Positions 572 through 27,825 of a stretch of DNA of 32,000 nucleotides are shown here, one piece after another. The stretch comes from Pyrodictium abyssi. Lineage in GTDB: Archaea; Thermoproteota; Thermoprotei_A; Sulfolobales; Pyrodictiaceae. The notes under the pieces were generated by a model. It saw only the letters and a program-made list of their open reading frames with translations, did not search any database and was not told where the DNA came from. The stretch is taken from NCBI RefSeq assembly GCF_036323395.1, contig NZ_AP028907.1, positions 1,200,001 through 1,232,000 on the forward strand, read 5' to 3'. The translations under genes and the position numbers were made by a program. How positions within the stretch are numbered: the stretch's first letter is position 1; each line of letters starts with the position of its first letter.

Positions 572-838
572 ATCCTCTAGCACACGCCCGGAACTAAACT
601 TGAAGTTCCAGCTCTAGTACTCAGCTTCCTCCGGCCAGGTTTCAACCACCTAGATACACGTCATCCTCAAGTCCATGAGCCAACTACAAAGCTCCTACCG
701 ACTCATTACGACGTTATTCTGATATAATTTATAAATTAATAATTAATCTCTAGCCTCACCGTTTTGCAGCTCTAAAGACGAGCAGTAACTCTTACATCTT
801 ACATTAATAACGAATATAAGCAAAGCCTATAATGTAAT

Positions 839-851
839 AAAAATAAACAAA
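839..851 (-). terminator. T-rich tract downstream of the ATPase gene, an archaeal-type terminator candidate
   Basis: The minus strand reads TTTGTTTATTTTT about 25 nt after the TAG stop at 874-876. Archaeal termination commonly uses oligo-T tracts. The surrounding DNA is AT-rich, so specificity is weak. Confidence 0.3.
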
Positions 852-873
852 GGTATAGACATTAGTAATCATC

Positions 874-1950
874 CTAGACGAGCAATTTAAGTATATCTAC
901 GACTCGTCCTATTTCGCCTAAGAGATGTTCTAACAAACTCTCTTCTCCATTTTCATTTTTACGGTGAAGATATCTAATAACGGCTGCACGAGTACATGGT
1001 GCATTATTCTTGCCACTATTTGATTTAAATAGAGCAATATTTCTGAAAACATCACAGGTTACTTCTGATATAATCTTAGTATCATCCTGCATATTGATAT
1101 TCACTTTTTCTATACTCTTCATGCTGTCTTCAGGTATATATTTATCAGCGATACATTCGATTTTTCCTTCAATTCTTTTCCAGATATCCAGCTGGTAAAA
1201 GTTCAGAATAGGGTATATCTCCACATCTCCTATTTGTTTTCTAATTTTCTCTACTTCTTTAAAATCTTTGTGTATCTTATCTAAAATCTTTACATGTGAA
1301 AACGAATTTGTATGTGGGATGTCGGTTTGGCCTAAGCCGTGCCCGCCCCCCGTATTCCCCGTATTTCTACATTCTTTAGGTAAATCAGGTAAATCATATA
1401 GTAATGCGAGAGCCCTTGTATCTATTAAGTATATAATTCGTACTCTCATGCCTCGAGATACTACCTTCTCTTCCTTTCGGAGGAGTTCAACCAGCATCTT
1501 CAAGAGATCAGAGAAGTCTTTCGGGTTGAACGTTAGTATTGGTGATAAATCGATAATGACGTTTAGTGTGCTTTCCCCCTCTAAGTGTTGCAAGTGTTGC
1601 CTAATAATGTCCAAGATGCTAGCCACAATAAGTGCCGTATTTGATACAATGACTGCAAGCATCATATCTTTTTCCTTGGTTCCAGCTACATCGTAGATAT
1701 GCACCTTATCATTATCTCTAAGCATGTAGCGGTTAAATTTAATTACTTTGCCTACTTCATTATCTTCCGACCTCAACAGCAACGTTAGAGGAAAGGGTGT
1801 TGCAGGATCCAATGATATACATATGCTCTCGCCTTTATTATGCTGTCCAAAGGTGCTGCATAGTGCAGACGCTATAAGCGACTTCCCAGTACCACCCTTA
1901 TGCGAAGTAACAATATACAAGTTTATAACCGGATTATATCTGCCTGCCAT
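874..1950 (-). CDS. ParA/MinD-class (SIMIBI) P-loop ATPase with a roughly 170-aa C-terminal extension
   Basis: 358-aa ORF in AT-rich DNA. It has a deviant Walker A, YIVTSHKGGTGKSLIASAL (KGGxGK[ST]), and a Walker-B-like LNVIIDLSP. GGAGG (minus strand, 1960-1964) lies 9 nt upstream of ATG 1950 and overlaps the upstream gene's stop, so this is an internal operon gene. The C-terminal half (about residue 190 onward) has no motif I recognise. Confidence 0.8.
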   Translation of the reverse strand: MAGRYNPVINLYIVTSHKGGTGKSLIASALCSTFGQHNKGESICISLDPATPFPLTLLLRSEDNEVGKVIKFNRYMLRDNDKVHIYDVAGTKEKDMMLAVIVSNTALIVASILDIIRQHLQHLEGESTLNVIIDLSPILTFNPKDFSDLLKMLVELLRKEEKVVSRGMRVRIIYLIDTRALALLYDLPDLPKECRNTGNTGGGHGLGQTDIPHTNSFSHVKILDKIHKDFKEVEKIRKQIGDVEIYPILNFYQLDIWKRIEGKIECIADKYIPEDSMKSIEKVNINMQDDTKIISEVTCDVFRNIALFKSNSGKNNAPCTRAAVIRYLHRKNENGEESLLEHLLGEIGRVVDILKLLV

Positions 1951-1963
1951 CCCATATTACCTC

Positions 1964-3301
1964 CTAGCTTAGTTCATCACATAGGTAGAGAAGCGTTGCA
2001 AAAGGATACCTCTCTGCCATCGTTTCTAAATTCTTGTTTCCATTCTTGCCCCTATTTTTACTACTTAACGCATCTTTTAGGTCATATTTGAAGTATTTAA
2101 AATCATCACATAAATCACCCTTACACCATTTATGCCTTAGTATTACTGTTGCAACGAATTTTCGTAGCACATAGAGCCTATTGCCTTTAGGTACTCTTCT
2201 AAGAATAATGTATGCTGATAAAACTGGATGGATAAGACCGACTATACCCTTTCCTGCTAGCCTATCAATACCCTTCTCTGCAGTATTCTTCAAGGTTTCC
2301 AGGACTAGTTTTAGTATGTCTTCGCTTCGTAATCTCTTTTCATCAGTATGTGAATAAAATGCGTATTTGAACTTTAGCATACTTACTATCTTTCGAGGAT
2401 CACCTTCGAACGCATAGCCAAGATCATGCAGCAGCCCTGCCGATAAGATAACAAACCATTTAAAGTACTCAAATAAAGTACTGTTTAAAAACATTCCAAG
2501 CTCACGTCCAAATTCCCTATATTCTTCCGTGTCTTTAAAATTATCATAACTACTAATCTTATTATGGATAGACCGGGCTACTTCGTTTATACTGGTCTTC
2601 CATTTTTTGAAGTTTCTCGGTATTATTTCGTCTATTGTCACATCATTTACTATTTTTATCATGCATTTCGTTACATTTAGGCTGTGGAGTATATGATCGC
2701 GGTAAGCATAATGCAGAGGATCATGACTAAACATGTTATCGATCGATAGGAAGCGTATAATGTCGTCAAATATGTCGCTATAGTACAGTTTGTTCATAAG
2801 GTGCATATATACTGTTGTAGCTGCAGCTAGTATCTCCTCGACACGCTCTAGGCAGCTAGATAGTGGGGGTCTACCGCTAGATTCAAGTCTTGATTTTGCT
2901 AGCTTTACCATCATGCCCCTATATGCTTCTGAAGTAATTGTATTTTTGACATAAAGGTCTTCTATGCTCGTGACTAAAGGGGCATATTCATCTTTTAATA
3001 GTAGATATGCAAATAGGTAAGAAGCATTCTGAATGCCTTCAAGTATTTGATTAACCGTATTAACTATATCTGTAGCTTTCTTTACATCCTTATCGTTGGG
3101 CACAGTGGTATCACCTTTACTATTAACGTTGTAGCTGTGAGTAGAGACGTAACACCCAATAATGTCTACCATGGATAAGTCAGTGGGAATGATTGCTAGC
3201 ATTACCGTTACCGATAAACGCGACGCCTGCGTAAAGTATACTGGGCTCGAGGAAATATGTATTACGAACATAAGCAGCACAAGGAGAAGTATACTGTGCA
3301 T
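1964..3301 (-). CDS. HD-superfamily phosphohydrolase/nuclease-like protein with a hydrophobic N-terminus
   Basis: 445-aa ORF. The N-terminus MHSILLLVLLMFVIHISSS looks like a signal peptide or TM anchor. The C-terminal half carries an HD-type series: DHILHSLNV, AGLLHDLGYAF, GLIHPVLSAY, ILRHKW, ATLLYLCDELS. The start is ambiguous, with in-frame ATGs also at 3271, 3202 and 3172. Confidence 0.75.
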   Translation of the reverse strand: MHSILLLVLLMFVIHISSSPVYFTQASRLSVTVMLAIIPTDLSMVDIIGCYVSTHSYNVNSKGDTTVPNDKDVKKATDIVNTVNQILEGIQNASYLFAYLLLKDEYAPLVTSIEDLYVKNTITSEAYRGMMVKLAKSRLESSGRPPLSSCLERVEEILAAATTVYMHLMNKLYYSDIFDDIIRFLSIDNMFSHDPLHYAYRDHILHSLNVTKCMIKIVNDVTIDEIIPRNFKKWKTSINEVARSIHNKISSYDNFKDTEEYREFGRELGMFLNSTLFEYFKWFVILSAGLLHDLGYAFEGDPRKIVSMLKFKYAFYSHTDEKRLRSEDILKLVLETLKNTAEKGIDRLAGKGIVGLIHPVLSAYIILRRVPKGNRLYVLRKFVATVILRHKWCKGDLCDDFKYFKYDLKDALSSKNRGKNGNKNLETMAERYPFATLLYLCDELS

Positions 3302-4243
3302 CCCATATCACTTGCAGAGCATAGAGAGCATGACTTGTACCGTGACTATAGTAGAAATGTAAAAGATAAAAAGGGTTTGATTATATCTGATTATAATCAT
3401 GGTTCTATTAAGCTTAGTATGGTAGAGCTATTTAGCATGTGGCCTAACAAGGAAGAGCCTTTAGAGCGCTTTAGCAGTGAGTATAAGGATGAAAAGTTTG
3501 CTAAGTACGGCAGCCGCCTTGTAGTGTTCACTAGCATTGATAAGGGCGAAAAGGAAGGCTGGCTAAAGCCGGGACCCCAGCTTCCTCCTGCACTCAAATG
3601 CCTCCAAGTAGATTCATATGTGACTACAAATCTTCTGATTCAAATATATTCACATCCTTACTTGAGCACTCAGTATACTACACTAGGTGGATCGGCAAAC
3701 TCGTTGCGTCAAATGCTCTCTCAAGTGCATCTTTTGGAGAGTAGTACTGTACAAAATATGCTGCAGCAACTCTATTACAATATAGATTACATCGCAGATA
3801 GTGGATCACATTATTCATCACTGTCTGCTAAAGTTAGCAAAATAAACATAGAAAAAGATTTTAATAGTATAATTAGCGAAATAATTAGTATTATTAATGA
3901 GTTAGAGAAGCGTTTTAGAAGAGCCTATGAGCTAGATTTGATAAAGTATGATGACTGGCAAATAATTTCAGACAAACTACAGAAGCTTGGACTCCTAACC
4001 GAGATGTTGTATAAGATACGCGGCAAGCACATAGATATCTTAGACGCTCTCTCGATCATTAATAAAATAGAAACGAGTGTAGAGGAAATAGCAGAGGAAA
4101 CTAAAAAAAGAGTACCTCTAGTTGCATTACTGCTTGCTCCGGTATTCATACACTTTGAAAGAATAATAAACCCAGTGATGAAGGCTCTAGTTTCAAGATT
4201 ATATAATGCAAAGGTTACGGAAGACTCCCTCGCAAAAGAATAA
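3257..4243 (+). CDS. Hypothetical protein (island orphan 1)
   Basis: 328-aa maximal ORF. Its first 45 nt overlap the divergent HD gene head-to-head, so ATG 3419 (or TTG 3377) is the more likely start. The sequence looks mostly helical, with a hydrophobic segment VPLVALLLAPVFIHF near the C-terminus. I recognise no catalytic motif. Confidence 0.7.
   Translation: MYYEHKQHKEKYTVHPISLAEHREHDLYRDYSRNVKDKKGLIISDYNHGSIKLSMVELFSMWPNKEEPLERFSSEYKDEKFAKYGSRLVVFTSIDKGEKEGWLKPGPQLPPALKCLQVDSYVTTNLLIQIYSHPYLSTQYTTLGGSANSLRQMLSQVHLLESSTVQNMLQQLYYNIDYIADSGSHYSSLSAKVSKINIEKDFNSIISEIISIINELEKRFRRAYELDLIKYDDWQIISDKLQKLGLLTEMLYKIRGKHIDILDALSIINKIETSVEEIAEETKKRVPLVALLLAPVFIHFERIINPVMKALVSRLYNAKVTEDSLAKE
3391..3397 (+). 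promoter_or_regulatory. TATA-box candidate for the plus-strand island operon
   Basis: TTATAAT is centred about 25 nt upstream of ATG 3419. That spacing fits a leaderless archaeal transcript. A second TTATATC lies at 3381-3387. The AT-rich context lowers specificity. Confidence 0.35.
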
Positions 4244-4248
4244 ACAAG

Positions 4249-5163
4249 GTGACATGTAAAATGAGCACTGCTTGTGAATACATGACTAGAGTTCCTGATA
4301 AGAGTGAACCGTTTATCTTGGTAAAGTTGCTTTACTCGTTTCGTTATGAGCCTGACTTGAAGCATACAGAAGGAGTAAAGTTCGAGGAAGCTATGAGAGA
4401 CCTAAGAAGTGAAGTTGAGAACGTTATATCGAGCCTCCGCACTAACTATAGTGTGATAGAGGAAGAGGAAGCAACCAGACTAGTTATAGTTCATCCTGTA
4501 AACCATTTTGCTATAACTATTAGGTACGATGCTGTGATTGTCGAACGTCATGCAGCATTCCTTGAAGAAAAAGAGTGCAACGAAACAATAAACCTTATGA
4601 GATACATCCTAGAGCTACTTGCCGGAAAGCTAATTAATTATTATAAGCAATCGATAGTTGAGGTTGGTGTTCGTGTTTCTCAATCATATATCATTGTGAA
4701 GGGTGAGAATAGTGGCTCCCCAGCGGCTAGGGATGAGCTTCTAAGAGGTCTAGAGGAAGGGACTGTTGTTAGCGTTCTTGCCAATACATTAAATTTAATG
4801 CTAAGCAACAAGAGTCTACGAGATAATACACGCGACTTGGAAGTTAACTGGGGTATTCGAGTAGAAGGTTTAGGTAATGCGAGATTTGTAATAAAGTTTA
4901 TACGGCTAATGCAGGGGAACACTCTTTCTCTTCTTCCCTTGCTGTTGATACCTATGGGTCGCCCGGATCATGGTGTTGAGATTTCTACCCAGTTAATTAT
5001 CGTGCCGAGAGCACAGCGGGATGTCGGAGATGTTATTAGAACCCTGGATAGAGCCGAGGATTGGGTTATTAGTACGTCCCGCCAGTTACATGCTGGTATA
5101 GTAGAGCTGTTGCGGAAGCTAGTTGGTAAGGTGATAGTAATGTATGCTCCCTTGCCTGGTTAG
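4249..5163 (+). CDS. Hypothetical protein (island orphan 2)
   Basis: 304-aa ORF from GTG 4249. ATG 4261 is the likelier start because AAGGTGA (4246-4252) precedes it by 8 nt. The ORF begins only a few nt after the upstream stop at 4243, so the two genes form an operon. I recognise no motif. Confidence 0.7.
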   Translation: MTCKMSTACEYMTRVPDKSEPFILVKLLYSFRYEPDLKHTEGVKFEEAMRDLRSEVENVISSLRTNYSVIEEEEATRLVIVHPVNHFAITIRYDAVIVERHAAFLEEKECNETINLMRYILELLAGKLINYYKQSIVEVGVRVSQSYIIVKGENSGSPAARDELLRGLEEGTVVSVLANTLNLMLSNKSLRDNTRDLEVNWGIRVEGLGNARFVIKFIRLMQGNTLSLLPLLLIPMGRPDHGVEISTQLIIVPRAQRDVGDVIRTLDRAEDWVISTSRQLHAGIVELLRKLVGKVIVMYAPLPG

Positions 5164-5540
5164 TTTTACTTTACTGGTGAACTGGGTACTGGCGCTAACG
5201 TGACCCAAGTGAGGAGGCTTTCCGCTTTTCTTTGGTGTGTTTACTGACGTGGTTATTGTTTAAGTGCTTGCTGGGTTTGCTGATTGATTCTGGGGCATGG
5301 GGTAGAAGTGACGGAGGGGCCTTGTCTGAAGTACCTTGGATGCATTTCTGAGTGCTCTAGAGTGTTCATCTGGGGTGGGAGAATGGTGCTTACGAAGTGT
5401 TGATGCTGGCTATCCTGGAGCGGGTGTTGGTATGTCATGTGCGCGCCGGGTCTGAGATAGCTATTGCATGAGTTTGTGTGCTGGCTTGTTACGGGCCATG
5501 AGTCTTCTAGGGCTTATTAGCCGTAGCTGCCAGGCTATAG

Positions 5541-6041
5541 GTGGGTATGCAGGACTTGGCTAGTGCTGTGGTTGTTAGGCTTCCCCGCAGTGACGCTGAG
5601 AGGCTGGAGCGCGAGGCTAGCAGGCTCGGCATAGGCCTGGAGGAGTACGTGCTAGAGCTCCTCCTCCGGAACCTGGACCCGCTGGAGAGGGCGAGGGAAT
5701 ACGCTGAGGCTGCAAGGGGCCTCCTAGAGCGGGCGAGAGAGGAGCTAGAGAGGGGTGATGTCCGGCAGGCTGCCGGGGAGGCCTGGGGCGCTGCAGCGCT
5801 GGCCGTGAAGGCCTACGCGGCGTGGCGGGATGGCAAGAGGTTGACAAGCCATGAGGGGCTATGGGAGTACAAGAGGGTGATGAAGAAGGATCTCGGTGAA
5901 CGGGTTAGTGATGCGTGGTACGCTGGGCAGAGTATGCATGTCTGCTTCTACGAGGGCTGGTGCGCTCGAGAGGGCGTTGAGGAGGCCCTAGAGAGGATCA
6001 AGAGGCTAGTAGAGGAGGTTGAGAAGCGGGTAGAGGCGTAA
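5541..6041 (+). CDS. Ribbon-helix-helix / PaREP1-family fusion protein
   Basis: The N-terminus VVVRLPRSDAERLEREASRLGIGLEEYVLELLL has a strand-helix-helix (CopG-like) pattern. The rest matches the PaREP1 pattern: GDVRQAAGEAWGAAALAVKAYAAW...LTSHEGLWEY...SMHVCFYEG. ATG 5547 is an alternative start. Confidence 0.7.
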   Translation: MGMQDLASAVVVRLPRSDAERLEREASRLGIGLEEYVLELLLRNLDPLERAREYAEAARGLLERAREELERGDVRQAAGEAWGAAALAVKAYAAWRDGKRLTSHEGLWEYKRVMKKDLGERVSDAWYAGQSMHVCFYEGWCAREGVEEALERIKRLVEEVEKRVEA

Positions 6042-6225: not shown

Positions 6226-6245
6226 GTGTGGAGCCGGCTCCACAC
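6226..6245. promoter_or_regulatory. Perfect 20-nt palindrome, a candidate operator upstream of the ArsR-family gene
   Basis: GTGTGGAGCC|GGCTCCACAC is a perfect inverted repeat. A related copy, GTGTGTGGCTCCACAT, lies at about 6255-6270. Both sit 50-130 nt upstream of the plausible ArsR starts. Confidence 0.4.
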
Positions 6246-7837: not shown

Positions 7838-8728
7838 TTGAGGAGGCTTGCCGGGCTCTTGCTAGCGGCTTCCGCCCCGCTGGCCTGGGCTACCAACGTG
7901 GTGGCTTCCCGGGTCCTGGTGACGAGCGGGGTCAACCCGTTCGCCCTGACAGCGGTACGGTGGACCGTAGCAGCCCTGCTGATGGCCGTGTACTCGCTCG
8001 CCAGGGGCCTGGGGGTGCCTGTTGGCCGCCGCCTTCTGGTCGCGGGGCTTCTCGGGATAACCATGTTCAATAACCTGCTCTACCTGGCCCTCGGCTATGC
8101 GCCGGCTGCGCTGGTCGGCCTCGTGTTCGGCCTACTCCCCGCAGTAACGATGCTCATGGCCCGCGCCCTTGGGGTTGAACGGGGCGACCGGGTGCTAGCC
8201 CTAGCCGCAGCCGTGGGCCTCCTGGGCGTCGCGCTGCTCGAGGCTGAGGGGCTCCGGAGCCCCGGCAGCATGGAGTGGCTCGGCGTGCTCCTAGCACTCG
8301 CCGACGTGGCGGTCTGGGCGCTCTACACGATAGAGTCGCGCCGCCTTACCCGCGGCCTTCACCCCCTGGCAGCGCTGACCGGCAGCACCGTGCTCAGCAC
8401 ACCCTTCAACACTGCTATAGCGCTACCCTGGCTCTCGGAGAGCCTCGCCGCGCTAGGGGACCCCTTGCTCCTAGCGCTCCTGCTCTACGTGGCTGCTGTG
8501 CCCGGCTTCCTAGCCTACCTGGCGTGGTTCCACGCGGTCAAGGAGCTCGGCCCGACCACCACGAGCCTCTTCGTGAACCTGCTTCCGCCCGCGACGCTAC
8601 TACTAGCGGTCGCTGTGCTGGGCGAGAAGCCGCGCGGGCTACAGCTAGCCGGTACAGCGCTCATACTGCTAAGCCTAGCCCTGGCAGCACGCAGGCAGCT
8701 ACAGCTAGCCTCCCACGAGGCCAGCTAG
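7838..8728 (+). CDS. EamA/DMT-family transporter
   Basis: 296 aa from a TTG start, with about 10 hydrophobic helices in two similar halves. The sequence is typical of the drug/metabolite transporter family (LLAASAPLAWATNVVASR..., ALYTIESRRL..., LGEKP). Confidence 0.75.
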   Translation: MRRLAGLLLAASAPLAWATNVVASRVLVTSGVNPFALTAVRWTVAALLMAVYSLARGLGVPVGRRLLVAGLLGITMFNNLLYLALGYAPAALVGLVFGLLPAVTMLMARALGVERGDRVLALAAAVGLLGVALLEAEGLRSPGSMEWLGVLLALADVAVWALYTIESRRLTRGLHPLAALTGSTVLSTPFNTAIALPWLSESLAALGDPLLLALLLYVAAVPGFLAYLAWFHAVKELGPTTTSLFVNLLPPATLLLAVAVLGEKPRGLQLAGTALILLSLALAARRQLQLASHEAS

Positions 8729-8746
8729 AGGACACTGGGGCGCTAT

Positions 8747-9202
8747 TCATCGCTGTTGCGGCTGTGCAGCTGTAGCAGCTTCCTTATCCTCGAATAAGGC
8801 CTTCTCCGTCTCCCCCAGTAGATAGTATGCTTCAACGCCGTATCTCCGGGCGCTCAGAACCTGCACCCTATCGTTCGAGACCAGGATGGAGCTTGTCTTC
8901 GAGGCACATGCTATGTAGTAGGCGTCGGCCGCTCTGGACCCAGTGGCTATGGCCACACGGTAGGCATCCTCGTCAAGGTTGGTGCACACACGGATCCTAG
9001 ATACAATCTCCTCCACCAGTTGTTCAACAACATCCCTAGGGTTAAGGCGTACCAAGAGCCCGGCAAGCTCCACCCGGAAGAGTGCAGGCTCGTATATAGC
9101 TAGGCCCTCGACCTCTGCGAAGAACTTCTCAGCTAGTCTAAGACGGGCCTCATCCCTCGCGTTGAACAAGTCGAACCACAACGAAGCATCAACAACTATC
9201 AT
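8747..9202 (-). CDS. vapC: PIN-domain ribonuclease toxin (VapC)
   Basis: It begins MIVVDASLWFDLF (first acidic PIN residue) and later has SNDRV. A small antitoxin-like ORF ends 6 nt upstream. Confidence 0.8.
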   Translation of the reverse strand: MIVVDASLWFDLFNARDEARLRLAEKFFAEVEGLAIYEPALFRVELAGLLVRLNPRDVVEQLVEEIVSRIRVCTNLDEDAYRVAIATGSRAADAYYIACASKTSSILVSNDRVQVLSARRYGVEAYYLLGETEKALFEDKEAATAAQPQQR

Positions 9203-9208
9203 GCCGCT

Positions 9209-9394
9209 TCAACGCCTCTCGGCGAGGTACCCGTCTATATCCTCGGAGGAGAGCTTGACGCCGTGCTTTTCGCGGTAACGGCGTGCTACATCAACTATGC
9301 TCTCCTCGATCCTTACTAGTACGTGCTGCCCTTCGTATAGGTCAAGCCTCTCTAGAGGCCTTAGTACCCCCTTCTCGTAGACTGCTCTTACTAC
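9209..9394 (-). CDS. DUF104 (AF2212-like) antitoxin-family protein, with no canonical start codon
   Basis: My manual translation of the minus strand gives (TR)VVRAVYEKGVLRPLERLDLYEGQHVLVRIEESIVDVARRYREKHGVKLSSEDIDGYLAERR*. The AVYEKGVLRPLE..L.L.EG..V.V signature is typical of DUF104 antitoxins paired with PIN toxins. The frame is closed by TGA at 9401-9403. There is no in-frame ATG, GTG or TTG, which explains its absence from the ORF track. Confidence 0.55.
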   Translation of the reverse strand, partial: VVRAVYEKGVLRPLERLDLYEGQHVLVRIEESIVDVARRYREKHGVKLSSEDIDGYLAERR

Positions 9395-9572
9395 TCTAGT
9401 TCACACCTTGTACCCATGTACCGTAGCACCGGCACTCCGGATAAGCACAGTGGCTATTCCAACACCCTCCGGGTGCATCACTCTCCACGCGTTAAGCCAG
9501 GTGAAAAGCTAGGCTTAGACCCCGTTAGCCGACTGGGGGCTTGTCGCTACACTGTGGCTGTCGCCGCGTGTT

Positions 9573-10007
9573 CTAGGCTGGTGGGCCGGGGTCCTCGTAC
9601 TCCACTACGAGCCATACATGGCTTCCATCGCTCCTCGGCACTGGTGCCAGGAGGAGGGCATGCGCCGGGTCCTCCAGCTGGGGGCTTCTGCCGGCGGCTA
9701 GCGTGTAGGGAGCCGCCTCGACCGTGTACGGCGGTGTGTATACTGTGGGTCCCGGGGCTGGGCAGGCCTGTGCCTCTAGTAGGAGTAGCTCTGCCTCGGC
9801 CACGGCTCTCGCGGCTAGGCGCATGCCCGGCGGCTTGGCGGCCACTGTGCCCGGCTCTAGGAGCTGGGTGCTCTCATTGGTCTCTGCCGCCACTGTGCCG
9901 CGGAGGACAAGGAGGATTATGCAGCCCGCTTCTCCGAGGACTAGTACTGTGCCCTTGTCCAGCCTCTCTAGTCTAGGGCTCCCGGCTCGCCCGGGAAGGG
10001 GCTCCAC
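9573..10007 (-). CDS. Hypothetical protein, possibly cupin-like
   Basis: 144 aa from a GTG start. Codon usage resembles neighbouring genes. The segment VLVLGEAGCIILLVLRGTVAAE...LLEPGTVAAKPPGMRLAARAVAEAELLLLE resembles cupin beta-strands. The overlapping plus-strand ORFs are Arg/Pro/Cys-rich and look like shadow ORFs. Confidence 0.45.
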   Translation of the reverse strand: MEPLPGRAGSPRLERLDKGTVLVLGEAGCIILLVLRGTVAAETNESTQLLEPGTVAAKPPGMRLAARAVAEAELLLLEAQACPAPGPTVYTPPYTVEAAPYTLAAGRSPQLEDPAHALLLAPVPRSDGSHVWLVVEYEDPGPPA

Positions 10008-11970: not shown

Positions 11971-12328
11971 AGCACCGAGATACACGAGCAGAGTCGACGC
12001 CAAAAGAACGCCCCTTCAGCCCTCGAACTCTTCCTCCAGGTCTATCTCCGCTAGCTCGCCGAGCCTAGCTCTTCCGGCCCTCAACTGGGCACGCCTCTCA
12101 CGAAGCTACCGGAGCACATTCTTCAGCTGCGCATCATAGGCCATAAGCTCCTCCCCCTGGGCCCGAGTAGAGCGTAGCCCCTCTATGACCATAAGCCTCG
12201 CAGAGAGCCCCCCGGGTACCACTATCTATCCCTTAGGTCCAGTCCTTCTGTCCTCGGTCTAACCAGGGGCCACACTGTGCAAGAGGCTAGCAGTATTCAA
12301 GGCTAAAATAGACATCCAGTAGCAGGGG

Positions 12329-12445
12329 CTAGTTGCTAGCCGTAGCAGGACAGTCCGAGCCCCCAGCCGCCCCAGGCGCTAACAGAAGGGCAATAACCGC
12401 GCCCAGCCATAGCCCGGCGCCAAGGAGTACAGCGTGTCTACCCAT
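12329..12445 (-). CDS. Possible 38-aa single-TM peptide
   Basis: My manual translation gives MGRHAVLLGAGLWLGAVIALLLAPGAAGGSDCPATASN*. Its ATG lies a few nt after the stop of the co-oriented membrane-protein gene. It is short, so support is weak. Confidence 0.25.
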   Translation of the reverse strand: MGRHAVLLGAGLWLGAVIALLLAPGAAGGSDCPATASN

Positions 12446-12452
12446 TTAGGCG

Positions 12453-12800
12453 CTATAGCTTCTCGTAGGCGTATCTACGCGCCTCCCCGACCAGCTCGTA
12501 CATTGATGCGAGAGCAAGCAATAACATTGCCGCCCCGGCTAGACCCGGGCCGTAGAGGAGGAAGCCTAGCAGCCCCAGCACCGCGACGAAGAGATAATGG
12601 GCCACTGCTAGCAGCTCTGGGACGCGGTCCCTGGGCAGCGAAGCCAGGAGCAGAATCGCGTAGTTTATCGCCGAGCCTATATTCCGGGCTATGAGGGAAT
12701 AGAGTAGCCCGGCTAGACCCGTCACTAGGCCTAGAGCAGCTAGAATACCTATCCACTGCCGACTATCCCTGGAAGTGCCCGTAGTACCCCCCGGGCTCAA
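12453..12800 (-). CDS. Hypothetical integral membrane protein
   Basis: 115 aa from a TTG start, with three or four clear hydrophobic helices (WIGILAALGLVTGLAGLLYSLI, AINYAILLLASL, LFVAVLGLLGFLLYGPGLAGAAMLLLALA). Confidence 0.55.
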   Translation of the reverse strand: MSPGGTTGTSRDSRQWIGILAALGLVTGLAGLLYSLIARNIGSAINYAILLLASLPRDRVPELLAVAHYLFVAVLGLLGFLLYGPGLAGAAMLLLALASMYELVGEARRYAYEKL

Positions 12801-13024
12801 CTAATGCAGCACCATATGAGACACATCGAATACAGGTCTGCATATCTTAAGTGATGTGCCCCAGGAACCGTAGACACCTTCGGATATCCTGCCGAGCGGG
12901 CTAGCCGTGGCCCGCTACCTGTGGCTAGCTAGCGCCCAGCGCTGCACCGCCGATATACTATCACGTTATCCTCGTATTATCGTGTCCGCTTCCTTTTAGA
13001 AGTAGCGCCATTAAACTCCAGACA

Positions 13025-13102
13025 ATGAGGTATACCTATCAAGTAGATGACGCTACGCCGGAGATAGAGCTAAGCAGCCATGCCAAGAGAAGGATTGAGT
13101 AG
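13025..13102 (+). pseudogene. 5' fragment of a DUF4258-like toxin gene, cut off by an in-frame TAG
   Basis: ATG 13025 encodes MRYTYQVDDATPEIELSSHAKRRIE, followed by TAG at 13100-13102. The same frame continues RGIAIEAVIDT into the ORF at 13136. LS.HA..R..(x)RGI is the N-terminal DUF4258 signature. Confidence 0.5.
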
Positions 13103-13135
13103 CGAGGCATAGCCATCGAGGCAGTAATAGACACC

Positions 13136-13597
13136 ATGCTTAGCCCTAGCTATGAACTATACGATGTAAAAGAGAGCACGCTCATATATACTTCGGAGAA
13201 GCACCGGCTGGTTGTCGCGGCTGTACGCCGTCCCGGAGACAAACTATACGTTGTCACCGTTATACCTGTGAGCAATCTTGAAAGCCTTGTGTCTAGGAGG
13301 ATTAGGAGGGCCGGTGGATACCGTTCGATAGAGGAGCTAGTAGAGGGCAGGATAATTGAGTACGACCCCGGATCCGATATCCTGGTTATACGTATACGCC
13401 GGGGCAAGGCTGTCGACGGCGAGTGGCTGGATAACGACGTGGTGCTACTGTATGGAGAGGATGGTAGGCTCCTCGAGGTGGAGGTCCACCGCGCCCGTGG
13501 TCGTGGCCTCGTGGAGGCCGTGCTGGAGCTGAGCGAGCGGCTAGGGCTCCGGCCAATGCGGCGGGCGGCTGAGGCTAGCCATGTAGAGGCTACGTGA
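13136..13597 (+). CDS. DUF4258-like (C-terminal part) fused to a DUF2283-like domain
   Basis: 153-aa ORF. The N-terminal part (LIYTSEKHRLVVAAVRRPGDKLYVVTVIPVS) continues the DUF4258 fold begun upstream of the TAG. The second part, IIEYDPGSDILVIRIRRGKAVDGEWLDNDVVLLYGEDGRLLEVEV, fits the DUF2283 pattern (YD.e.D.L.I....g......vd.d..G.lvgiEi). Confidence 0.65.
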   Translation: MLSPSYELYDVKESTLIYTSEKHRLVVAAVRRPGDKLYVVTVIPVSNLESLVSRRIRRAGGYRSIEELVEGRIIEYDPGSDILVIRIRRGKAVDGEWLDNDVVLLYGEDGRLLEVEVHRARGRGLVEAVLELSERLGLRPMRRAAEASHVEAT

Positions 13598-13652
13598 GCG
13601 CACAGAGGAGGGCCCCCGGGGCCGCGGGATACAGCATAACCTGCGGCATTGT

Positions 13653-14561
13653 CTAGGGCTGCTGCGTGCTCGTGGTCTGGTTGTCTTCTTTGGTGCTCTT
13701 TCTGGCTCGGGCTAGGCGGCTGCGTGCCTTCTCTAGTACTGGGCCGAGTAGCTCCATGTGCTGGTCTACCGTGTAGTGCCTGTATGGCGCTGGCCTGCCC
13801 CGGTACACAACCCTCTCGCTGAGCGTGGCTGAGTCTACCCGTGTTACCTCGACGCCGCTGCTGTCCAGGCGTATGACGTTGAAGGATGGTGATGTGCCTG
13901 CTTTTAGCTTGATTGTTGTCGCGGTCCCGGCGTGTAGTATCAGCATGCCGTTGAGCTCCCATACCCATGGTACGTGCTTGTGGCCCGAGAGCACTATGTT
14001 GACGCCTAGCCGGAGGAGTAGGTCTAGGAAGTCTCCAGCGTCGACTGGTATGTTTCTCTCACGCCCGGTCCCGGGCACCGGTACTAGGTGGTGGTGTAGC
14101 GCTACTATCTTCAGGCCGTTGCACTTCTCTAGGTTCTGCTCTACTATCCTGTACGCGAGCCTACCTATGTGGCCGTCGTCTAGGTCTGGCTCGCTCGAGT
14201 CGACGCCCTGTATGCATACCCGGCCACGGTGGCTTATGAAGGGGTAGCGTGTGCCGAATACGTGCTCGAAGACGACATAGCCCATGTTCCTCGAGTCGTG
14301 GTTGCCGGGCACGACGAGCAGCTCGGCCGTGTTTATCCTGGCTAGCAGGTCTATCGCCTTCTCGTACTCGTGTACAAACCCGTAGTCCGTGATGTCCCCA
14401 GTCACCACCACGATGTCCGGCTCCACTCTGTTCACATAGCCTATCACGTTCTCTGCCAGCTTTGGCGAGAAGACCCCGGCGCCTACGTGCAGGTCTGAAA
14501 GGTGTACTATCACTGTCACCACGTAGCCACCAGGAGCTATGCTCAGTATGATGATTTCCAC
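13653..14561 (-). CDS. Metallophosphoesterase (calcineurin-like)
   Basis: Motifs VIVHLSDLHVG, VVVTGDITDYG, VPGNHDS, ALHHHLVPVPG and LSGHKHVP are present. The start may lie a few codons downstream of the first candidate. Confidence 0.85.
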   Translation of the reverse strand: MEIIILSIAPGGYVVTVIVHLSDLHVGAGVFSPKLAENVIGYVNRVEPDIVVVTGDITDYGFVHEYEKAIDLLARINTAELLVVPGNHDSRNMGYVVFEHVFGTRYPFISHRGRVCIQGVDSSEPDLDDGHIGRLAYRIVEQNLEKCNGLKIVALHHHLVPVPGTGRERNIPVDAGDFLDLLLRLGVNIVLSGHKHVPWVWELNGMLILHAGTATTIKLKAGTSPSFNVIRLDSSGVEVTRVDSATLSERVVYRGRPAPYRHYTVDQHMELLGPVLEKARSRLARARKSTKEDNQTTSTQQP

Positions 14562-14694
14562 GAAGCAGGTAATATAGTCCCCTCTCCGGCCTTGGGTGGA
14601 GCTGGCATTGTTCTAGCTTGCACGTTAACCCTTAGGATACCTGGCTTGCTCTACAAAAACACTCCTAGGTGCACAATATGGCCAAAATGTAGTT

Positions 14695-15501
14695 TTATGT
14701 AGTGTTAAAGATATCCTTGTGGGACTGGCTCATACTCCTGGAAAGCATGGCTGCGAATTCAGCTATGTATCTTAGGACTGAGTCGGTGGCGCTATCTGTG
14801 GTCTTTTTGCTGAGACCTCCTATAGCGAGGCTATCGCTAACTACTAGAGCTACAACAGTCCTTATGCCCAATAGGCTGGCGATAGTATAGAGTGTTGCTG
14901 TCTCACATTCTACGCAGAGGATCGGCTTGTCGGCCCACTCCCTGAGCAGCTTGTTCTCAGTCATATGGCTTGATGTTGTGTAGACTAGTCCCAGTGTTGC
15001 CTCTAGGCCTCTCCGGCGGAGGAAATTATGCAGCTCTACAGCTAGCACGGGATCTGCTACTGCGGGAAACCGGGGGTTCACGTAGTTCTCAGAGGCTCCG
15101 TCGCCACGTACAGCCGCGTAGGCGACTACGACGCTGCCTAGGCCGAGCTGCTCCTTCAGTGCTCCGCACCAGCCTAGCCCTAGAATGTACTCTGCTCTCG
15201 CTGCACACGCAAGGGCTAGGAGAACCTCCACGTAGTGTGGCCCGCCCGCCAGGGCTACGAAGGATACGGGCAGCCTTCTGTGCCTCCATACGCGTATTGT
15301 GTGGAGCGTATTGTCTAGCTTCTCAACATCCCTGCCGAGGACTTTCTCGACTCTCTGGAACCCGCCGCCGAGCAGAGGGACTATGACCTTGCCCAGGACC
15401 GAGGGGTCTCTACCGCCTAGGCTTGATCGAACCCAGTTCTCAACCCAGTAGCGCGGGGAGTCGAGCACCCGGAAACATTGCTCCGGAACGAGTGGGCTCA
15501 T
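14695..15501 (-). CDS. Nucleoside phosphorylase family protein (PNP/UDP phosphorylase fold)
   Basis: 268 aa with segments typical of family-1 nucleoside phosphorylases: GGPHYVEVLLALA, LGLGWCGAL, VRGDGASENY, VECETATLYTIASLLGI. Confidence 0.6.
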   Translation of the reverse strand: MSPLVPEQCFRVLDSPRYWVENWVRSSLGGRDPSVLGKVIVPLLGGGFQRVEKVLGRDVEKLDNTLHTIRVWRHRRLPVSFVALAGGPHYVEVLLALACAARAEYILGLGWCGALKEQLGLGSVVVAYAAVRGDGASENYVNPRFPAVADPVLAVELHNFLRRRGLEATLGLVYTTSSHMTENKLLREWADKPILCVECETATLYTIASLLGIRTVVALVVSDSLAIGGLSKKTTDSATDSVLRYIAEFAAMLSRSMSQSHKDIFNTT

Positions 15502-15620
15502 AGAATGCCCCGTACCCCTAGTGCCGGGGCATCGTCTACGCTATGTGCTTTACGTGGCATAGCCCTCTATGCTGCCTATAGCGCCTCCTGCCTGGCCGAG
15601 TATAGGCTAAAGTGCAACCG

Positions 15621-21797: not shown

Positions 21798-22244
21798 TCA
21801 TGTGTAGGCGTGGCCCGTGTGCCGGGTGGTGCCCGTTCTCCGGGGTTTCTGTTGTTCCTCTGCTGGCTGCTTGGTGCTGCCTGGCTCTCCGAGTAGCACC
21901 TCCTTGACGTGTTCTAGGAATGCTTCTAGGCTCGGGTCTTCTAGGGGTCTTACCTCTCCTCCTACGTGCCGGTGGTGCGGGTGGGTCTCCACCTCTGGGT
22001 GGTGCGGGGCGTTATCCCATCCCTCTATGGTTTCTCCGCTCTGGCTGAGCCAGTAGTAACTGTAGGCTATCACCTTGTCGCCCCGGCGGATCTGGCGTAG
22101 GTGGAGCTTTGAGCCGTCTACTAGTGCTGCTGTGGCCTTTTCCACTACTATGTCTCCCCTTACGGTGAGTTCAAGCTTCTCTAGCCTCGCTACTATGCCC
22201 CGGTACCTCTCCAAGAGCTTTTCTAAGTAGCTGGCGTAGCTCAC
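21798..22244 (-). CDS. TumE-like (DUF6516) toxin-family protein
   Basis: YSYYWLSQSGETIEGWDNAPHHPEVETHPHHRH matches the conserved (W/Y)DNAPHHP....PHH(K/R)H core of that family. GTG start at 22244, with GTG 22145 as an alternative. Confidence 0.65.
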   Translation of the reverse strand: MSYASYLEKLLERYRGIVARLEKLELTVRGDIVVEKATAALVDGSKLHLRQIRRGDKVIAYSYYWLSQSGETIEGWDNAPHHPEVETHPHHRHVGGEVRPLEDPSLEAFLEHVKEVLLGEPGSTKQPAEEQQKPRRTGTTRHTGHAYT

Positions 22245-25986: not shown

Positions 25987-27177
25987 TCATCCCCGCACCG
26001 CGGGGGCCTTCGGGGCTCCACGGAAACCCCTGGAGCCCCTCATCCGCGTGAAGCCTTTCAATGCAAGATTCCAAGCCGCCACGATGTCTCTAGTTGTAGC
26101 AACACCGTTTGGCAGTACCATCCATCGGTAGTTCAGCTTCTTCACCTTGCCCTGTGGCGAGGCTTTGCTGGTGCTTTTCGCGGGGACGTAGATTGTCTTC
26201 AATCCTCTCCATGCCGCCTTGTACTCTATGAAGCCCTGTAGCCTTCTGTAGGCGAGCTGGGTGAAGAGCCATGCCAGCCTACTGTTCTCTTCCGAGGCAC
26301 ACATCTTCAAGCCTTTGAGGTTCTCCAGGACTATGAGCGAGCCATACCTGTCCGCAATCCCCACCAGCTTCTTAGCCGCAAAATGAGCGGTATCATTGAC
26401 TATGCTCCTGGCTCTGCTCATCCGCCTCTTGTAGACCTTCCGAGACCACTTCATGAACCTCCAGTGTCTTCCGAGGCGCTTCTGGAGGCTCTCCGCCATT
26501 TTGCGGAGGCGTAGTGCTCTCTTGAAGCCCTTGAAGACTGTGACGCCAGCGGTTACGATTCTACCAGACTCGGCGTCGAGGACAACGTAGCTCACGTTGC
26601 CCAGGTTCACGTCCACGCCCATAACGGTTCTAGGCTTCCTCTCTTCGACCTCCCTCTCAAGAGTCATATAGACCTTGAAGCCGTCGTTGCGGTGTGATAC
26701 TAGTAGCTCCTTTGGCCTCCAGCCCTCGGCGAGGAACCGCTTTAGCCTGCGCATACCTCTCAATCGCAGCTCTACCCATCCGCCGTGGAGAACTGCTACT
26801 TTGAGCACCCCTCTCTCGACGTCAAGCCTGTACTCGTAGCTGTGGAGCCTCGCGGTTAGCCTCCTTAGTATGGGCTTTCTGCCACCGTTCTTCTTGACTG
26901 CCTTCACTATCTCCTTTGCACGCTTGTATATCTCGCTGACGTGGTGGGCGCGGAAACCCCAGCCCCGCAGCTCCCTGTAGAACATCTCGTGTAGCTGCCT
27001 GACGCTGGGAACCCTATCTAGACCCCATATAGTGTCCACGATGTACTGGACCGCGTCGCGGTACGCCTTGAGGAAGTCGAGTAGGGGCTGGGGATTAGGG
27101 GGGCCACCGCATCCATTACGACGGTGGCTCTGACCCTCATCCCGCCAGCCCCCAGCCATGCGAGCGGAGAGTAACAC
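25987..27177 (-). CDS. tnpB: TnpB-like (IS605 OrfB family) RuvC-fold protein, probably degraded
   Basis: RuvC triad context is present: VMGVDVNLGN (D), LIVLENLKGL (E) and TTRDIVAAWNLA (D). The usual CxxC...CxxC zinc ribbon between E and the last D is absent (STSKASPQGKVKKLNYRWMVLPNGV). The first roughly 25 codons look out of frame relative to a better N-terminus starting at ATG 27140. Confidence 0.8.
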   Translation of the reverse strand: MLLSARMAGGWRDEGQSHRRNGCGGPPNPQPLLDFLKAYRDAVQYIVDTIWGLDRVPSVRQLHEMFYRELRGWGFRAHHVSEIYKRAKEIVKAVKKNGGRKPILRRLTARLHSYEYRLDVERGVLKVAVLHGGWVELRLRGMRRLKRFLAEGWRPKELLVSHRNDGFKVYMTLEREVEERKPRTVMGVDVNLGNVSYVVLDAESGRIVTAGVTVFKGFKRALRLRKMAESLQKRLGRHWRFMKWSRKVYKRRMSRARSIVNDTAHFAAKKLVGIADRYGSLIVLENLKGLKMCASEENSRLAWLFTQLAYRRLQGFIEYKAAWRGLKTIYVPAKSTSKASPQGKVKKLNYRWMVLPNGVATTRDIVAAWNLALKGFTRMRGSRGFRGAPKAPAVRG

Positions 27178-27360: not shown

Positions 27361-27825
27361 TTACCACGCTACTGTTATTCCCAGCTTCGAGGCCACGTAG
27401 GCTAGGTCTCTGTCACCCGTGACTATAGGCGCTCTATGCTTCTGTGCTAGCACTATCACTGTTGAGTCGACTATGCTTAGCCTCCTCCTCTTCAGATCAG
27501 GGTCCTCCGCATCACGGAGTAGACCGTCTCCCCTATGCTTTATCTCAGCCGCTTTCACCCAGTCGGTTAGGTCTAGGTTCTCTACCCTGAAGTACCGGGT
27601 TAGGAAGGTCACGACCTCCTCCAGCGAGGTGAGGACGGGTATCCTGCCTCTACGCCAGTGGACGATATACTCGTAGGCTACTGTCACCGGCAGCAGCCCT
27701 ACTACGCGTCCCCTCCTAACGTCTTGTAGTAGCTGTGTCGCTTTCTCGCCTAGCTCCCCAAAGGCCATTGCTAGGAGCGCGTGGGTGTCTACTACGACCT
27801 TTCTGGGCTTCTCTTCCTCCACCAC
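27361..27825 (-). CDS. vapC: PIN-domain toxin (VapC)
   Basis: KVVVDTHALLAMAF and a C-terminal TGDRDLAYVA. It overlaps the upstream AbrB-type antitoxin gene. Confidence 0.8.
   Translation of the reverse strand: MVEEEKPRKVVVDTHALLAMAFGELGEKATQLLQDVRRGRVVGLLPVTVAYEYIVHWRRGRIPVLTSLEEVVTFLTRYFRVENLDLTDWVKAAEIKHRGDGLLRDAEDPDLKRRRLSIVDSTVIVLAQKHRAPIVTGDRDLAYVASKLGITVAW

Follow-up and report, generated by a model that had tools for sequence, protein, structure and literature searches.

Compact anti-phage systems such as Gabija, Septu, PARIS and Lamassu combine an NTPase with a nuclease in units of two to four genes. ParA-class ATPases, by contrast, are typical of partition and positioning and not of known immune systems, and we know of no immune system in which the ParA/MinD class has been found. 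Proteins of the ParA/MinD family position many cargos, most HD proteins act as phosphohydrolases, and the archaeal mobilome typically contains AT-rich orphan genes. Apart from CRISPR-Cas and toxin-antitoxin (TA) genes, little has to our knowledge been described of the immunity and mobile elements of organisms that grow near 100 °C, and we are aware of no virus or plasmid isolated from Pyrodictium. Here, we consider an AT-rich block within a 32,000-nucleotide stretch of the chromosome of the hyperthermophile Pyrodictium abyssi (hereafter the window; Table 1). We read the block as an accessory island that was acquired by horizontal transfer and carries a self-contained gene module which has very rarely been sampled. 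This module is real, mobile and essentially undescribed, and its most plausible role is in defence or conflict.

The foreign origin of the block follows from its AT-rich composition relative to the host and from its insertion relative to the sister species Pyrodictium delaneyi. The GC content is 38.4% between positions of about 650 and 5170, compared with 63.5% in the remaining window, which is also the value for the host chromosome. When the window was compared by blastn with the P. delaneyi locus, homology stopped at 537 and restarted at 6227, such that about 5.7 kb in P. abyssi take the place of 185 bp in P. delaneyi, between moaE and a wHTH gene that adjoin each other in P. delaneyi strains. 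The PaREP1/HEPN gene is likewise missing from the P. delaneyi locus; its GC content, examined by codon position, is host-like (62%) even though it lies within the inserted segment. The left flank contains no ORF, tRNA or Rfam match and its RNA fold is not significant (z = -0.39); the fold of the right flank is not significant either (z = -1.66), and in similarity comparison this flank resembles neither the left one nor those of the metagenomic locus described below. The preliminary description of this DNA had noted that the four-gene block lacks mobility, replication and capsid genes and sits among TA genes, and both observations hold. We detected no integrase, transposase, replication or capsid gene in the block, and the surroundings in the window include PaREP1/HEPN, VapC, PIN and TumE genes together with a TnpB-like gene. 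TA-rich variable regions also gather mobile-element debris. The window contains no tRNA, integrase or flanking direct repeats, so the island does not qualify here as an integrative element, and neither tandem nor iterated repeats occur within or beside the block. No CRISPR-like repeats were found in the window, and among its ORFs scanned against Pfam no Cas family was matched at E <= 0.001 beyond a TnpB/Cas12f-like TNB protein about 21 kb away from the block.

Table 1. Features of the island and its immediate surroundings, in window coordinates.
Feature	Position	Strand	Remarks
Island	538..6226		extra relative to P. delaneyi, where the wHTH (DUF7347) gene directly follows moaE
Left non-coding flank	572..873		downstream of the ATPase gene; GC drops from ~50% to ~30%
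ParA/MinD-class deviant Walker A ATPase, divergent (PABY_13190)	874..1950	-	358 aa; assigned from motifs and sub-threshold profile matches
HD-superfamily protein, divergent (PABY_13200)	1964..3103	-	probably 379 aa; ORF open up to 3301 (445 aa)
Divergent control region	3104..3256		separates the two operons; holds one 8-bp palindrome, AGTATACT, at 3235-3242
ORF3 (PABY_13210)	3257..4243	+	315-328 aa (ORF 328 aa); orphan, predicted mostly helical; no family match
ORF4 (PABY_13220)	4261..5163	+	300 aa; mixed alpha/beta, conserved partner; ORF open from 4249 (304 aa)
Right non-coding flank	5164..5540		~50% GC, G+T-rich
PaREP1/HEPN-family gene	5541..6041	+	Pfam PaREP1, E = 4.8e-23

Four genes (PABY_13190-13220; ORFs of 300-445 aa) fill the block, and the earlier view that such long ORFs are unlikely to arise by chance is borne out. 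Measured from stop to stop, they span 447, 360, 341 and 318 codons. When the block was shuffled 500 times under a first-order Markov model, the longest ORF was 94 codons on average and never exceeded 168, and the fourth-longest was at most 94 codons in every shuffle. GC content by codon position (GC1 0.45-0.54 > GC3 0.36-0.38 > GC2 0.29-0.35) follows the pattern of real coding sequence. The geometry of the genes is consistent with the two divergent two-gene operons proposed previously, and the details given for these agree with the sequence: the ATG of the ATPase gene at 1950 comes 13 nt after the HD stop codon, a TAG overlapping GGAGG, and AAGGTGA lies 8 nt ahead of the ATG at 4261, which is most likely the start of ORF4. 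Translation of ORF3 would begin at 3257 or 3296. In addition to the palindrome in the control region, a second copy of AGTATACT occurs at 3288-3295, just within the ORF3 frame if the start is at 3257; there are three copies in the 32-kb window against 0.44 expected, all of them within the island.

An exhaustive HMMER search with the ATPase and the HD protein against 1.84 billion representatives, which stand for about 15 billion proteins, returned a single non-self relative, that of the HD protein. All four proteins are near-orphans. This relative sits in metagenome contigs of about 30% GC (L003-L008) from an uncultivated lineage, in which a gene designated m3 and homologues of ORF4, the ATPase and the HD protein follow one another in colinear order. 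Identities between the homologues of the two loci range from 24 to 36%, with 36% for the HD proteins (E = 1e-50), E = 4e-9 (z = 13.4) for the ATPases, and 31% over 142 aa by BLASTP (E = 7e-13; Smith-Waterman z = 16.9) for ORF4. The original proposal was held to fail if the four genes never co-occurred elsewhere. The ATPase, HD protein and ORF4 do occur together in this independent lineage, and so three of the four genes pass that test, but the place of ORF3 is taken by a non-homologous 411-aa protein (z = 0.9). ORF3, directly upstream of ORF4, is lineage-specific and not conserved. Between the loci the ATPase and HD genes have swapped order and the operons are built differently, but the gene set has stayed together. 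Genes are tightly spaced at both, with a 13-nt overlap in L003 and a 13-nt spacing with a Shine-Dalgarno-like sequence in P. abyssi. As judged from these two loci, the conserved core comprises the ATPase, the HD protein and ORF4, with the HD gene tightly coupled to the ATPase gene; with two lineages, conservation of this linkage is a sample of two.

In L006 the gene set forms an insert of about 5.1 kb with 18-37% GC in a host of about 50% GC, bordered by a VapBC (AF2212-like/PIN) cassette on one side and by a tRNA-3'-half repeat on the other. In L009 this repeat occurs within 43 nt after the orthologous PIN gene and is followed by unrelated AT-rich cargo. The unit thus travels alone. There is no integrase at the metagenomic locus, and the repeat is present on one side only. 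Dense TA arrays surround this locus, in which TA and AT-rich cassettes are arrayed with tRNA-half repeats between them. Given that the unit was inserted alone at two unrelated chromosomal sites, with about 200-350 nt of non-coding DNA at either side, it could be regarded as a new autonomous mobile element whose mobility machinery is the HD enzyme and the ATPase. We consider this very improbable. Terminal inverted or direct repeats and a target duplication are absent at both loci, the flanks of one locus are not related to those of the other, a single copy was seen per locus with no second one in the window, and we know of no HD-domain transposase.

The orphan status of the genes and their strongly atypical GC content would also be expected of decaying, non-functional foreign DNA in which long ORFs merely survive. 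There is very little chance that this is so, since the four intact ORFs lie far past chance expectation, the catalytic motifs are invariant across homologues of such low identity, the metagenomic variants differ by 11 synonymous against 4 non-synonymous changes, and Shine-Dalgarno-like sites precede internal starts of island genes. The invariant Walker A/B and HD residues, the synonymous excess and the tight gene spacing together argue that the island genes are functional.

The preliminary description placed the two minus-strand proteins in the ParA/MinD class and the HD superfamily, and the motifs on which it relied (SHKGGTGKS, LLHDLGY and LLYLCDELS) are all found in the translations. For the ATPase, the class assignment stands at the level of its conserved deviant Walker A motifs but not at that of curated profile thresholds. 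The P-loop pattern KGGxxGK[ST] reads SHKGGTGKS in PABY_13190 and SHKGGTGKT in its homologue, with Lys18 as signature lysine, and by inspection, without a model, the Walker B and switch aspartates lie at the expected spacing in both proteins (ISLDP; VIIDLSP/IIIDIPP for Walker B; IYLIDTR/INYIIDSR). Pfam CbiA matched PABY_13190 with E = 6.8e-5, and the two whole-domain scores obtained with this model, 23.3 bits for PABY_13190 and 24.8 bits, fall below the gathering cut-off of 25.4; every other model scores far under its cut-off and covers the P-loop only. Against a manually entered sequence of E. coli MinD, hhalign gave 93.7% probability over 39 columns, and MinD (3q9l) was the top match in the PDB profile search at E = 0.014, with E >= 0.014 throughout the PDB sequence searches.

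The HD protein presents a similar picture. The H...HD...H...H...D metal-binding pattern (H203/H206, H292-D293, H358, H390 and D442) is invariant between the homologues, but the scores obtained with Pfam HD (PF01966), 15.9 bits (E = 0.016) and 12.3 bits (E = 0.22), fall short of the gathering score of 22. The cas3_HD model matched both homologues independently with E = 0.035-0.15, at about 12 bits against a cut-off of 43.45 and so short of membership in Cas3'', and an hhalign alignment with a bona fide HD protein of P. delaneyi covers the HD dyad only. The start of PABY_13200 is probably the GTG at 3103, given the RefSeq call, AAAGGTGAT just before it and the metagenomic homologue, which has no hydrophobic N-terminus. 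The membrane anchor proposed previously, a hydrophobic stretch upstream of this GTG, is therefore probably an untranslated extension of the ORF. If one considers that most HD proteins are phosphohydrolases and that ParA/MinD proteins position many cargos, the genes may serve an accessory cellular function outside genetic conflict, as a regulated nucleotide or second-messenger phosphohydrolase or as a system that positions a cellular complex. We regard this as improbable: the module is extremely rare, with two lineages in the whole protein collection searched, it has a foreign composition and is missing from P. delaneyi, both loci lie in TA-rich variable regions and the proteins diverge fast.

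The preliminary description knew of no named system that pairs such an ATPase with an apparently membrane-anchored HD protein and recognised no motif in ORF3 and ORF4, and the searches agree. PADLOC, Pfam, NCBIfam, PHROGs, the PDB and the phage and plasmid collections yielded no match to a named system; profile searches found no family for either ORF, and ORF4 had no PDB match. With PADLOC-DB v2, the eight proteins of the two loci gave no convincing match to any system model. The top score, of ORF3 with Cas12c models (E = 6e-4 and 1.4e-3; 15-16 bits), is read as a chance likeness of a low-complexity helical protein, and the remaining matches were to Cas3-HD (E of about 0.04) and JAB (E = 0.018). 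The structure models were uninformative, with a pLDDT of about 37, and the fold search gave no match.

The main rival of a conflict module is a captured maintenance module, a piece of some plasmid or virus from hyperthermophiles. In this reading the ATPase would act as a motor for partition or positioning, with ORF3 and ORF4 as its adaptors or DNA binders and the HD protein as an accessory enzyme of the element, and integrase and replication genes would have been lost after capture. The AT-rich orphan genes would suit such an origin, as would the weak matches of the ATPase to ParA partition models (PHROG 164, E = 0.002-0.03; NCBIfam ParA_partition, E = 0.003), the tRNA-half repeat adjoining the second locus, which is of the kind left by integrative elements, and the unsampled reservoir to be expected of vent viruses and plasmids. 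However, the same small set with nothing else mobile in two hosts is unexpected from independent decay, and an integrase fragment and att direct repeats are both absent. The operon partner of the ATPase is an HD enzyme and not an HTH/RHH centromere-binding protein; profile searches, which very divergent binders could escape, detected no DNA-binding domain in the HD protein, ORF3 or ORF4, and with neither an adjacent ParB-like HTH/RHH binder nor iterated centromere repeats the block is not a ParABS system. Both protein sets gave no tblastn match at E <= 1 in 50,697 phage/virus records and 72,556 plasmids, IMG/VR scans found no relative, and PHROGs returned weak P-loop matches only, so the well-characterised partition cassette or viral module that would have undone the original proposal was not found. 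Taken together, we judge this origin somewhat unlikely.

We tentatively favour a horizontally transferred conflict module, acting in defence, exclusion or addiction, whose HD nuclease or hydrolase would be under the control of an ATP switch; we infer the activities of the proteins, their interactions and any protective effect from context. Since PADLOC found nothing, the term defence here expresses guilt by association with TA-rich variable regions. By analogy with other members of its class, the ATPase would be an ATP-dependent dimerisation switch that licenses or positions the HD enzyme on nucleic acid. The HD enzyme would be a metal-dependent hydrolase, most likely a Cas3''-like nuclease, and ORF4 and the variable ORF3 may act as sensor or adaptor. 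A bolder and, in our view, unlikely version is a categorically new archaeal conflict system, encountered to date only in high-temperature archaea, in which a ParA/MinD-class ATPase gates a Cas3''-like HD nuclease from a compact AT-rich cassette that moves into TA arrays with tRNA-half repeats between cassettes. If true, this would hint that hyperthermophilic archaea capture defence cargo by an integron-like or att-array mechanism, and the arrays at the second locus may explain how TA and AT-rich cargo is captured. The module is a compact four-gene candidate in which two genes have predictable catalytic residues, and the second host provides an independent natural replicate that separates the core from the variable ORF3. 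If the module is defensive, the ParA/MinD ATPases would join the known immune switches; if it serves maintenance, it would offer initial access to the mobilome of the Pyrodictiaceae, which is so far unsampled.

Compared with described systems, the ATPase resembles those of the ParA/MinD/Soj type (SIMIBI; archaeal plasmid ParA, SegA) in its xKGGxGK[ST] P-loop with signature lysine, DP motif, hhhhDxxP Walker B and downstream hhxDxR strand, and its top profile matches are CbiA, ParA, MinD, ArsA, BcsQ and BagA. It differs in that it aligns over the first ~50 residues only, with all matches under curated cut-offs, in its unique C-terminal ~150 residues, and in having an HD enzyme as operon partner where these have ParB, MinE or a centromere-binding protein, with no centromere-like repeats. 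The HD protein comes closest, by weak profile match, to the Cas3'' HD nucleases: its conserved residues follow one another as they do there (H, HD, H, H, D), and for each homologue independently Cas3-HD is the sole defence model matched. Unlike in Cas3'', an insert of ~70-100 residues separates the first His from the HD dyad, and there is an extra N-terminal region; unlike in CRISPR-Cas, the window holds no Cas3 helicase, cas genes or CRISPR array. The likeness to Gabija, Septu, PARIS and Lamassu is one of design only, an NTPase switch with a nuclease-type effector and small partners on variable islands; those systems use ABC/OLD/SMC-type or AAA ATPases with TOPRIM, HNH or other nucleases, and the island matches none of their models. 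We did not find a ParA-plus-HD module mentioned in the work of Makarova et al. 2014 (PMC4158269) on archaeal 'dark matter islands', narrowly distributed and fast-evolving gene clusters with links to the mobilome and defence, and it is these islands, a descriptive category rather than a system, that the P. abyssi island resembles.

The four open reading frames that the preliminary description had placed in an AT-rich block of what is Pyrodictium abyssi chromosomal DNA were all found at their expected positions, and exact protein look-ups identify them as PABY_13190 to PABY_13220, each annotated as hypothetical. The block (~650-5170) has a G+C content of 38.4%, compared with 63.5% in the rest of the window, and its stop-to-stop frames span 447, 360, 341 and 318 codons, compared with a mean of 94 and a maximum of 168 codons for the longest frame in Markov shuffles of the same DNA (n=500). 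Codon-position G+C in these frames follows the coding pattern GC1 > GC3 > GC2, and that the block is simply dead DNA is one of the less likely explanations for it. The motifs reported ahead of two of the genes are also present, with GGAGG lying over the stop codon of the HD protein gene, 13 nt ahead of the ATPase ATG at 1950, and AAGGTGA lying 8 nt upstream of the ORF4 ATG at 4261. The membrane anchor proposed for the HD protein is not supported. The hydrophobic stretch falls within the initial 30 codons of the open frame, ahead of the RefSeq start (GTG 3103, 379 aa), which is preceded by a AAAGGTGAT of its own; initiation at 3301 would mean a 45-nt overlap with the divergent ORF3, and a hydrophobic N-terminus is lacking in the only known homologue, whose alignment starts near residue 82 of the P. 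abyssi open frame. Against an expectation of 0.44 copies, the 32-kb window contains three of the 8-bp palindrome AGTATACT, and all three fall within the island; two of them lie 53 nt apart in the control region from which HD and ORF3 diverge, and could represent a candidate operator.

In two P. delaneyi strains, moaE, a wHTH gene (DUF7347) and an EamA transporter gene follow in order, with a gap of 270 bp between the first two. Since blastn homology to P. delaneyi ends at window position 537, just within the 3' end of moaE, and restarts at 6227, ~5.7 kb is specific to P. abyssi; that this DNA serves a cellular housekeeping role is one of the less likely readings. The moaE frame runs on to 571, past the end of the homology, and its last few codons are replaced at the insertion junction. 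The island contains no tRNA gene, Rfam match or integrase and has no flanking direct or inverted repeats. On the transcribed strand, the non-coding DNA 3' of both operons is rich in G+T, as is its counterpart in a second, metagenomic copy of the module, and these flanks show no sequence similarity and no significant RNA structure (z -0.1 to -1.7). No terminal inverted or direct repeats were found, and the flanks are alike neither within nor between the two loci; a new autonomous element is also among the less likely accounts of the module.

Features of the P. abyssi island, the surrounding window and the related metagenomic contigs (L003-L008, second copy of the module; L009-L011, toxin-antitoxin cassettes)
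Feature	Location	Remarks
ATPase gene	window 874-1950 (-)	
HD protein gene	window 1964-3103 (-)	frame open to 3301
ORF3	window 3257 (or 3296)-4243 (+)	
ORF4	window 4261-5163 (+)	
AT-rich four-gene core		part of ~5.7-kb insertion
Intermediate-GC non-coding DNA		~300 and ~380 nt, one each side of four-gene core
PaREP1/HEPN gene	window 5541-6041	inside insertion; host-like composition
G+T-rich DNA, minus operon	window 572-873	
G+T-rich DNA, plus operon	window 5164-5540	
G+T-rich DNA, metagenomic	L006 5638-5960	
AGTATACT palindrome	window 3235-3242, 3288-3295, 3672-3679	
m3		411 aa; first of four colinear genes, metagenomic locus
m4		328 aa; second colinear gene
Metagenomic ATPase		337 aa; third colinear gene
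Metagenomic HD protein		last colinear gene; overlaps ATPase gene by 13 nt
Tandem duplication in m3	L006 1542-1649	54 nt
AT-rich segment	L006 ~805-5945	18-37% G+C
tRNA-3'-half repeat	L006 5964-6008	~50 nt
tRNA-3'-half repeat	L009 2265-2326, 4263-4317, 5184-5235	~50 nt
tRNA-3'-half repeat	L010 4336-4384, 6468-6512, 7401-7469	
tRNA-3'-half repeat	L011 4366-4414	
Cargo ORFs	L009 5429-8536	152, 402, 210 aa
Second P. abyssi-specific segment	window 8716-9573	
VapC/PIN toxin gene	window 8747-9202	
Lower-GC segment	window ~12000-15600	53-60% G+C
TumE toxin gene	window 21798-22244	
TnpB/Cas12f-like gene	window 25987-27177 (-)	
PIN-domain gene	window 27361-27825 (-)	

The island proteins are near-orphans, the exhaustive search of a large collection having used the ATPase and HD sequences. 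The claim that no named system matches was upheld, in that none of the four proteins exceeded a threshold in Pfam, NCBIfam, PHROGs or PADLOC, and ORF3 and ORF4 had no family match in these collections. The ATPase scored 23.3 bits against CbiA (cut-off 25.4), with weaker matches to ArsA, ParA, TraL, BcsQ and BagA in the P-loop only, and the HD protein 15.9 bits against the HD model (cut-off 22) and ~12 bits against cas3_HD. With the ATPase and HD proteins as queries, word-seeded searching of 5.8 billion clusters returned self matches only; a concatenated ORF3+ORF4 query had zero matches and also missed the known ORF3 self entry, making it an unreliable negative. Degenerate DNA patterns for the HD block (SAYIILRRxxKGxRL) and the ATPase N-terminus (YIVTSHKGGTGK) had zero matches in GTDB representative genomes, JGI metagenomes and IMG/VR. 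In a control, the HD-block pattern matched the window and six of the fetched loci (L003–L008), so the GTDB collection evidently lacks this P. abyssi assembly and its negative is weak. Automatic alignment-based scans of public collections also found none (again weak for GTDB), and in the literature we found no account of a ParA-plus-HD module or of P. abyssi islands. The reservoir of the module is unsampled.

When the ATPase and HD sequences were searched exhaustively with HMMER against 1.84 billion representatives, one non-self protein came back, P0013 (435 aa, E = 8.7e-40). The contigs encoding it come from four sequencing runs (SRR33151389, SRR33151390, SRR13622961 and SRR13853570) and two ENA metagenome samples (SAMN10217872 and SAMN10217878), are at least 99% mutually identical and have ~30% G+C. 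The supposition that the four genes belong together was borne out for three of them, since homologues of the ATPase, the HD protein and ORF4 occur together in these contigs, and failed for ORF3, which is replaced by the unrelated m3. The HD pair shares 36% identity over 358 aa (BLASTP E = 1e-50; Smith-Waterman z 66 vs shuffles), the ATPase pair gave E = 4e-9 (z 13.4) with the unusual LYIVTSHKGGTGK start common to both, and ORF4 and m4 share 31% over 142 aa (E = 7e-13; z 16.9). Similarity between ORF3 and m3 was undetectable (z 0.9), and neither showed reproducible similarity to the HD proteins, but both lie directly upstream of the ORF4-type gene. The metagenomic genes form one operon (m3, m4, ATPase, HD), whereas P. 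abyssi has HD followed by ATPase on one strand and ORF3 followed by ORF4 on the opposite one, so the linkage has outlived rearrangement. Comparison of two metagenomic variants across the three core genes gave 11 synonymous and 4 non-synonymous changes. The core is conserved and under constraint, as judged from two lineages. The metagenomic module lacks the AGTATACT palindrome.

Within m3 lies a 54-nt tandem duplication (96% identical), at the same site in contigs L006 and L008, which repeats NYYILSYQKQPILPSL and is the exact breakpoint of the Logan contigs L003 and L004. Circularity of the 4273-nt contigs was rejected, as they have no terminal overlap and break at a polymorphic site as well as at this internal duplication. 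An apparent m3 frameshift in L006 is a 10-N scaffold gap.

To the left of the L006 module is a pair of genes of ~50% G+C, encoding an AF2212-like antitoxin and a PIN toxin, and to its right, on the opposite strand, is a tRNA 3' half (Rfam tRNA, 31.1 bits) that runs off the contig end. Copies of this half, in which the anticodon loop reads CCG by eye, sit between VapBC cassettes in the related contigs L009, L010 and L011, the last being from a hydrothermal vent metagenome according to its record name. The repeats resemble an array of cassette boundaries or remnants of att sites. In L009 a copy lies within 43 nt downstream of the orthologous PIN gene, and beyond it come unrelated AT-rich ORFs, two of them seemingly membrane-rich; that different AT-rich cargo follows orthologous PIN genes in the two strains represented by L006 and L009 suggests a variable hotspot. 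In a second host, then, the module is once more a discrete insert of AT-rich DNA within a variable region rich in toxin-antitoxin genes, without any other mobile-element gene.

The P. abyssi window is likewise rich in toxin and mobile-element genes, in agreement with the earlier impression of a region dense in toxin-antitoxin genes. The VapC/PIN gene lies in a second segment specific to P. abyssi relative to P. delaneyi (blastn), and the gene for the TnpB/Cas12f-like protein (TNB domain, E = 8e-10) neighbours one with a PIN domain; the window also has a TumE toxin gene. Separately, a segment of lower GC carrying DUF2283, Metallophos and PNP_UDP_1 genes is flanked by FAA-hydrolase and ferredoxin genes that are adjacent in P. 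delaneyi, and, judged by gene order only, is probably another insertion.

Taken together, the module is an intact, horizontally transferred accessory unit that inserts into variable regions of hyperthermophile chromosomes where toxin-antitoxin genes abound, the second locus being known from metagenome contigs. Both ATPases contain KGGTGK[ST] with the signature lysine, ISLDP, hIIDxxP and IxYxIDxR, the motif series of ParA/Soj/MinD proteins, a putative assignment at motif level and below curated thresholds. A two-sequence ATPase profile aligned with E. coli MinD by hhalign at 93.7% probability, over 39 columns only (the MinD sequence used agrees with the 3q9l fragments from the PDB search). PDB sequence and profile searches matched the P-loop alone, with MinD first (E = 0.014) and the Get3-like Rv3679 next (E = 0.05), and were otherwise empty. 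An ATPase of ParA class, together with the tRNA-half boundary, would fit a maintenance module captured from a plasmid or virus, which is the main rival reading and one that we consider less likely than a role in conflict. A centromere-binding partner, repeats and other element genes are all absent, and two independent 'remnants' would need to have decayed to the same gene set. Neither does a viral or plasmid relative appear: tblastn of the P. abyssi proteins against 50,697 phage/virus records and 72,556 plasmids gave none at E <= 1, the metagenomic-locus proteins gave an empty result against viruses and plasmids, and IMG/VR scans found none.

The HD proteins both keep H203/H206, H292-D293, H358, H390 and D442, as well as a 35-residue ungapped block, HPVxSAYIILRR..KG.RL..LR..VATVILRH.W. 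Against a bona fide P. delaneyi HD protein, hhalign aligned the HD dyad alone. Their placement in the HD superfamily is a motif-level prediction, below every curated threshold. The sole defence-library match of each, obtained independently, was Cas3-HD (E about 0.04). AlphaFold2 models, made from single sequences of fused ORF3+ORF4 and fused ATPase+HD, were discarded (pLDDT ~37); Foldseek searches with them gave no match at E <= 0.001, and TM scores were 0.1-0.3.

As to function, which we infer throughout, we tentatively favour a role in conflict, because the unit travels alone, is placed among defence-type genes, has one replaceable, fast-evolving component, and appears to couple an ATP switch to an HD enzyme. 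If this is the case, the ATPase would dimerise on ATP and the dimer would license or position the HD hydrolase, with ORF4 and ORF3 perhaps acting as sensor or adaptor. The motif order of the island HD enzyme resembles that of Cas3'', its match to the cas3_HD model being below the curated threshold, and this order in the partner of an ATP switch is part of what inclines us towards conflict.
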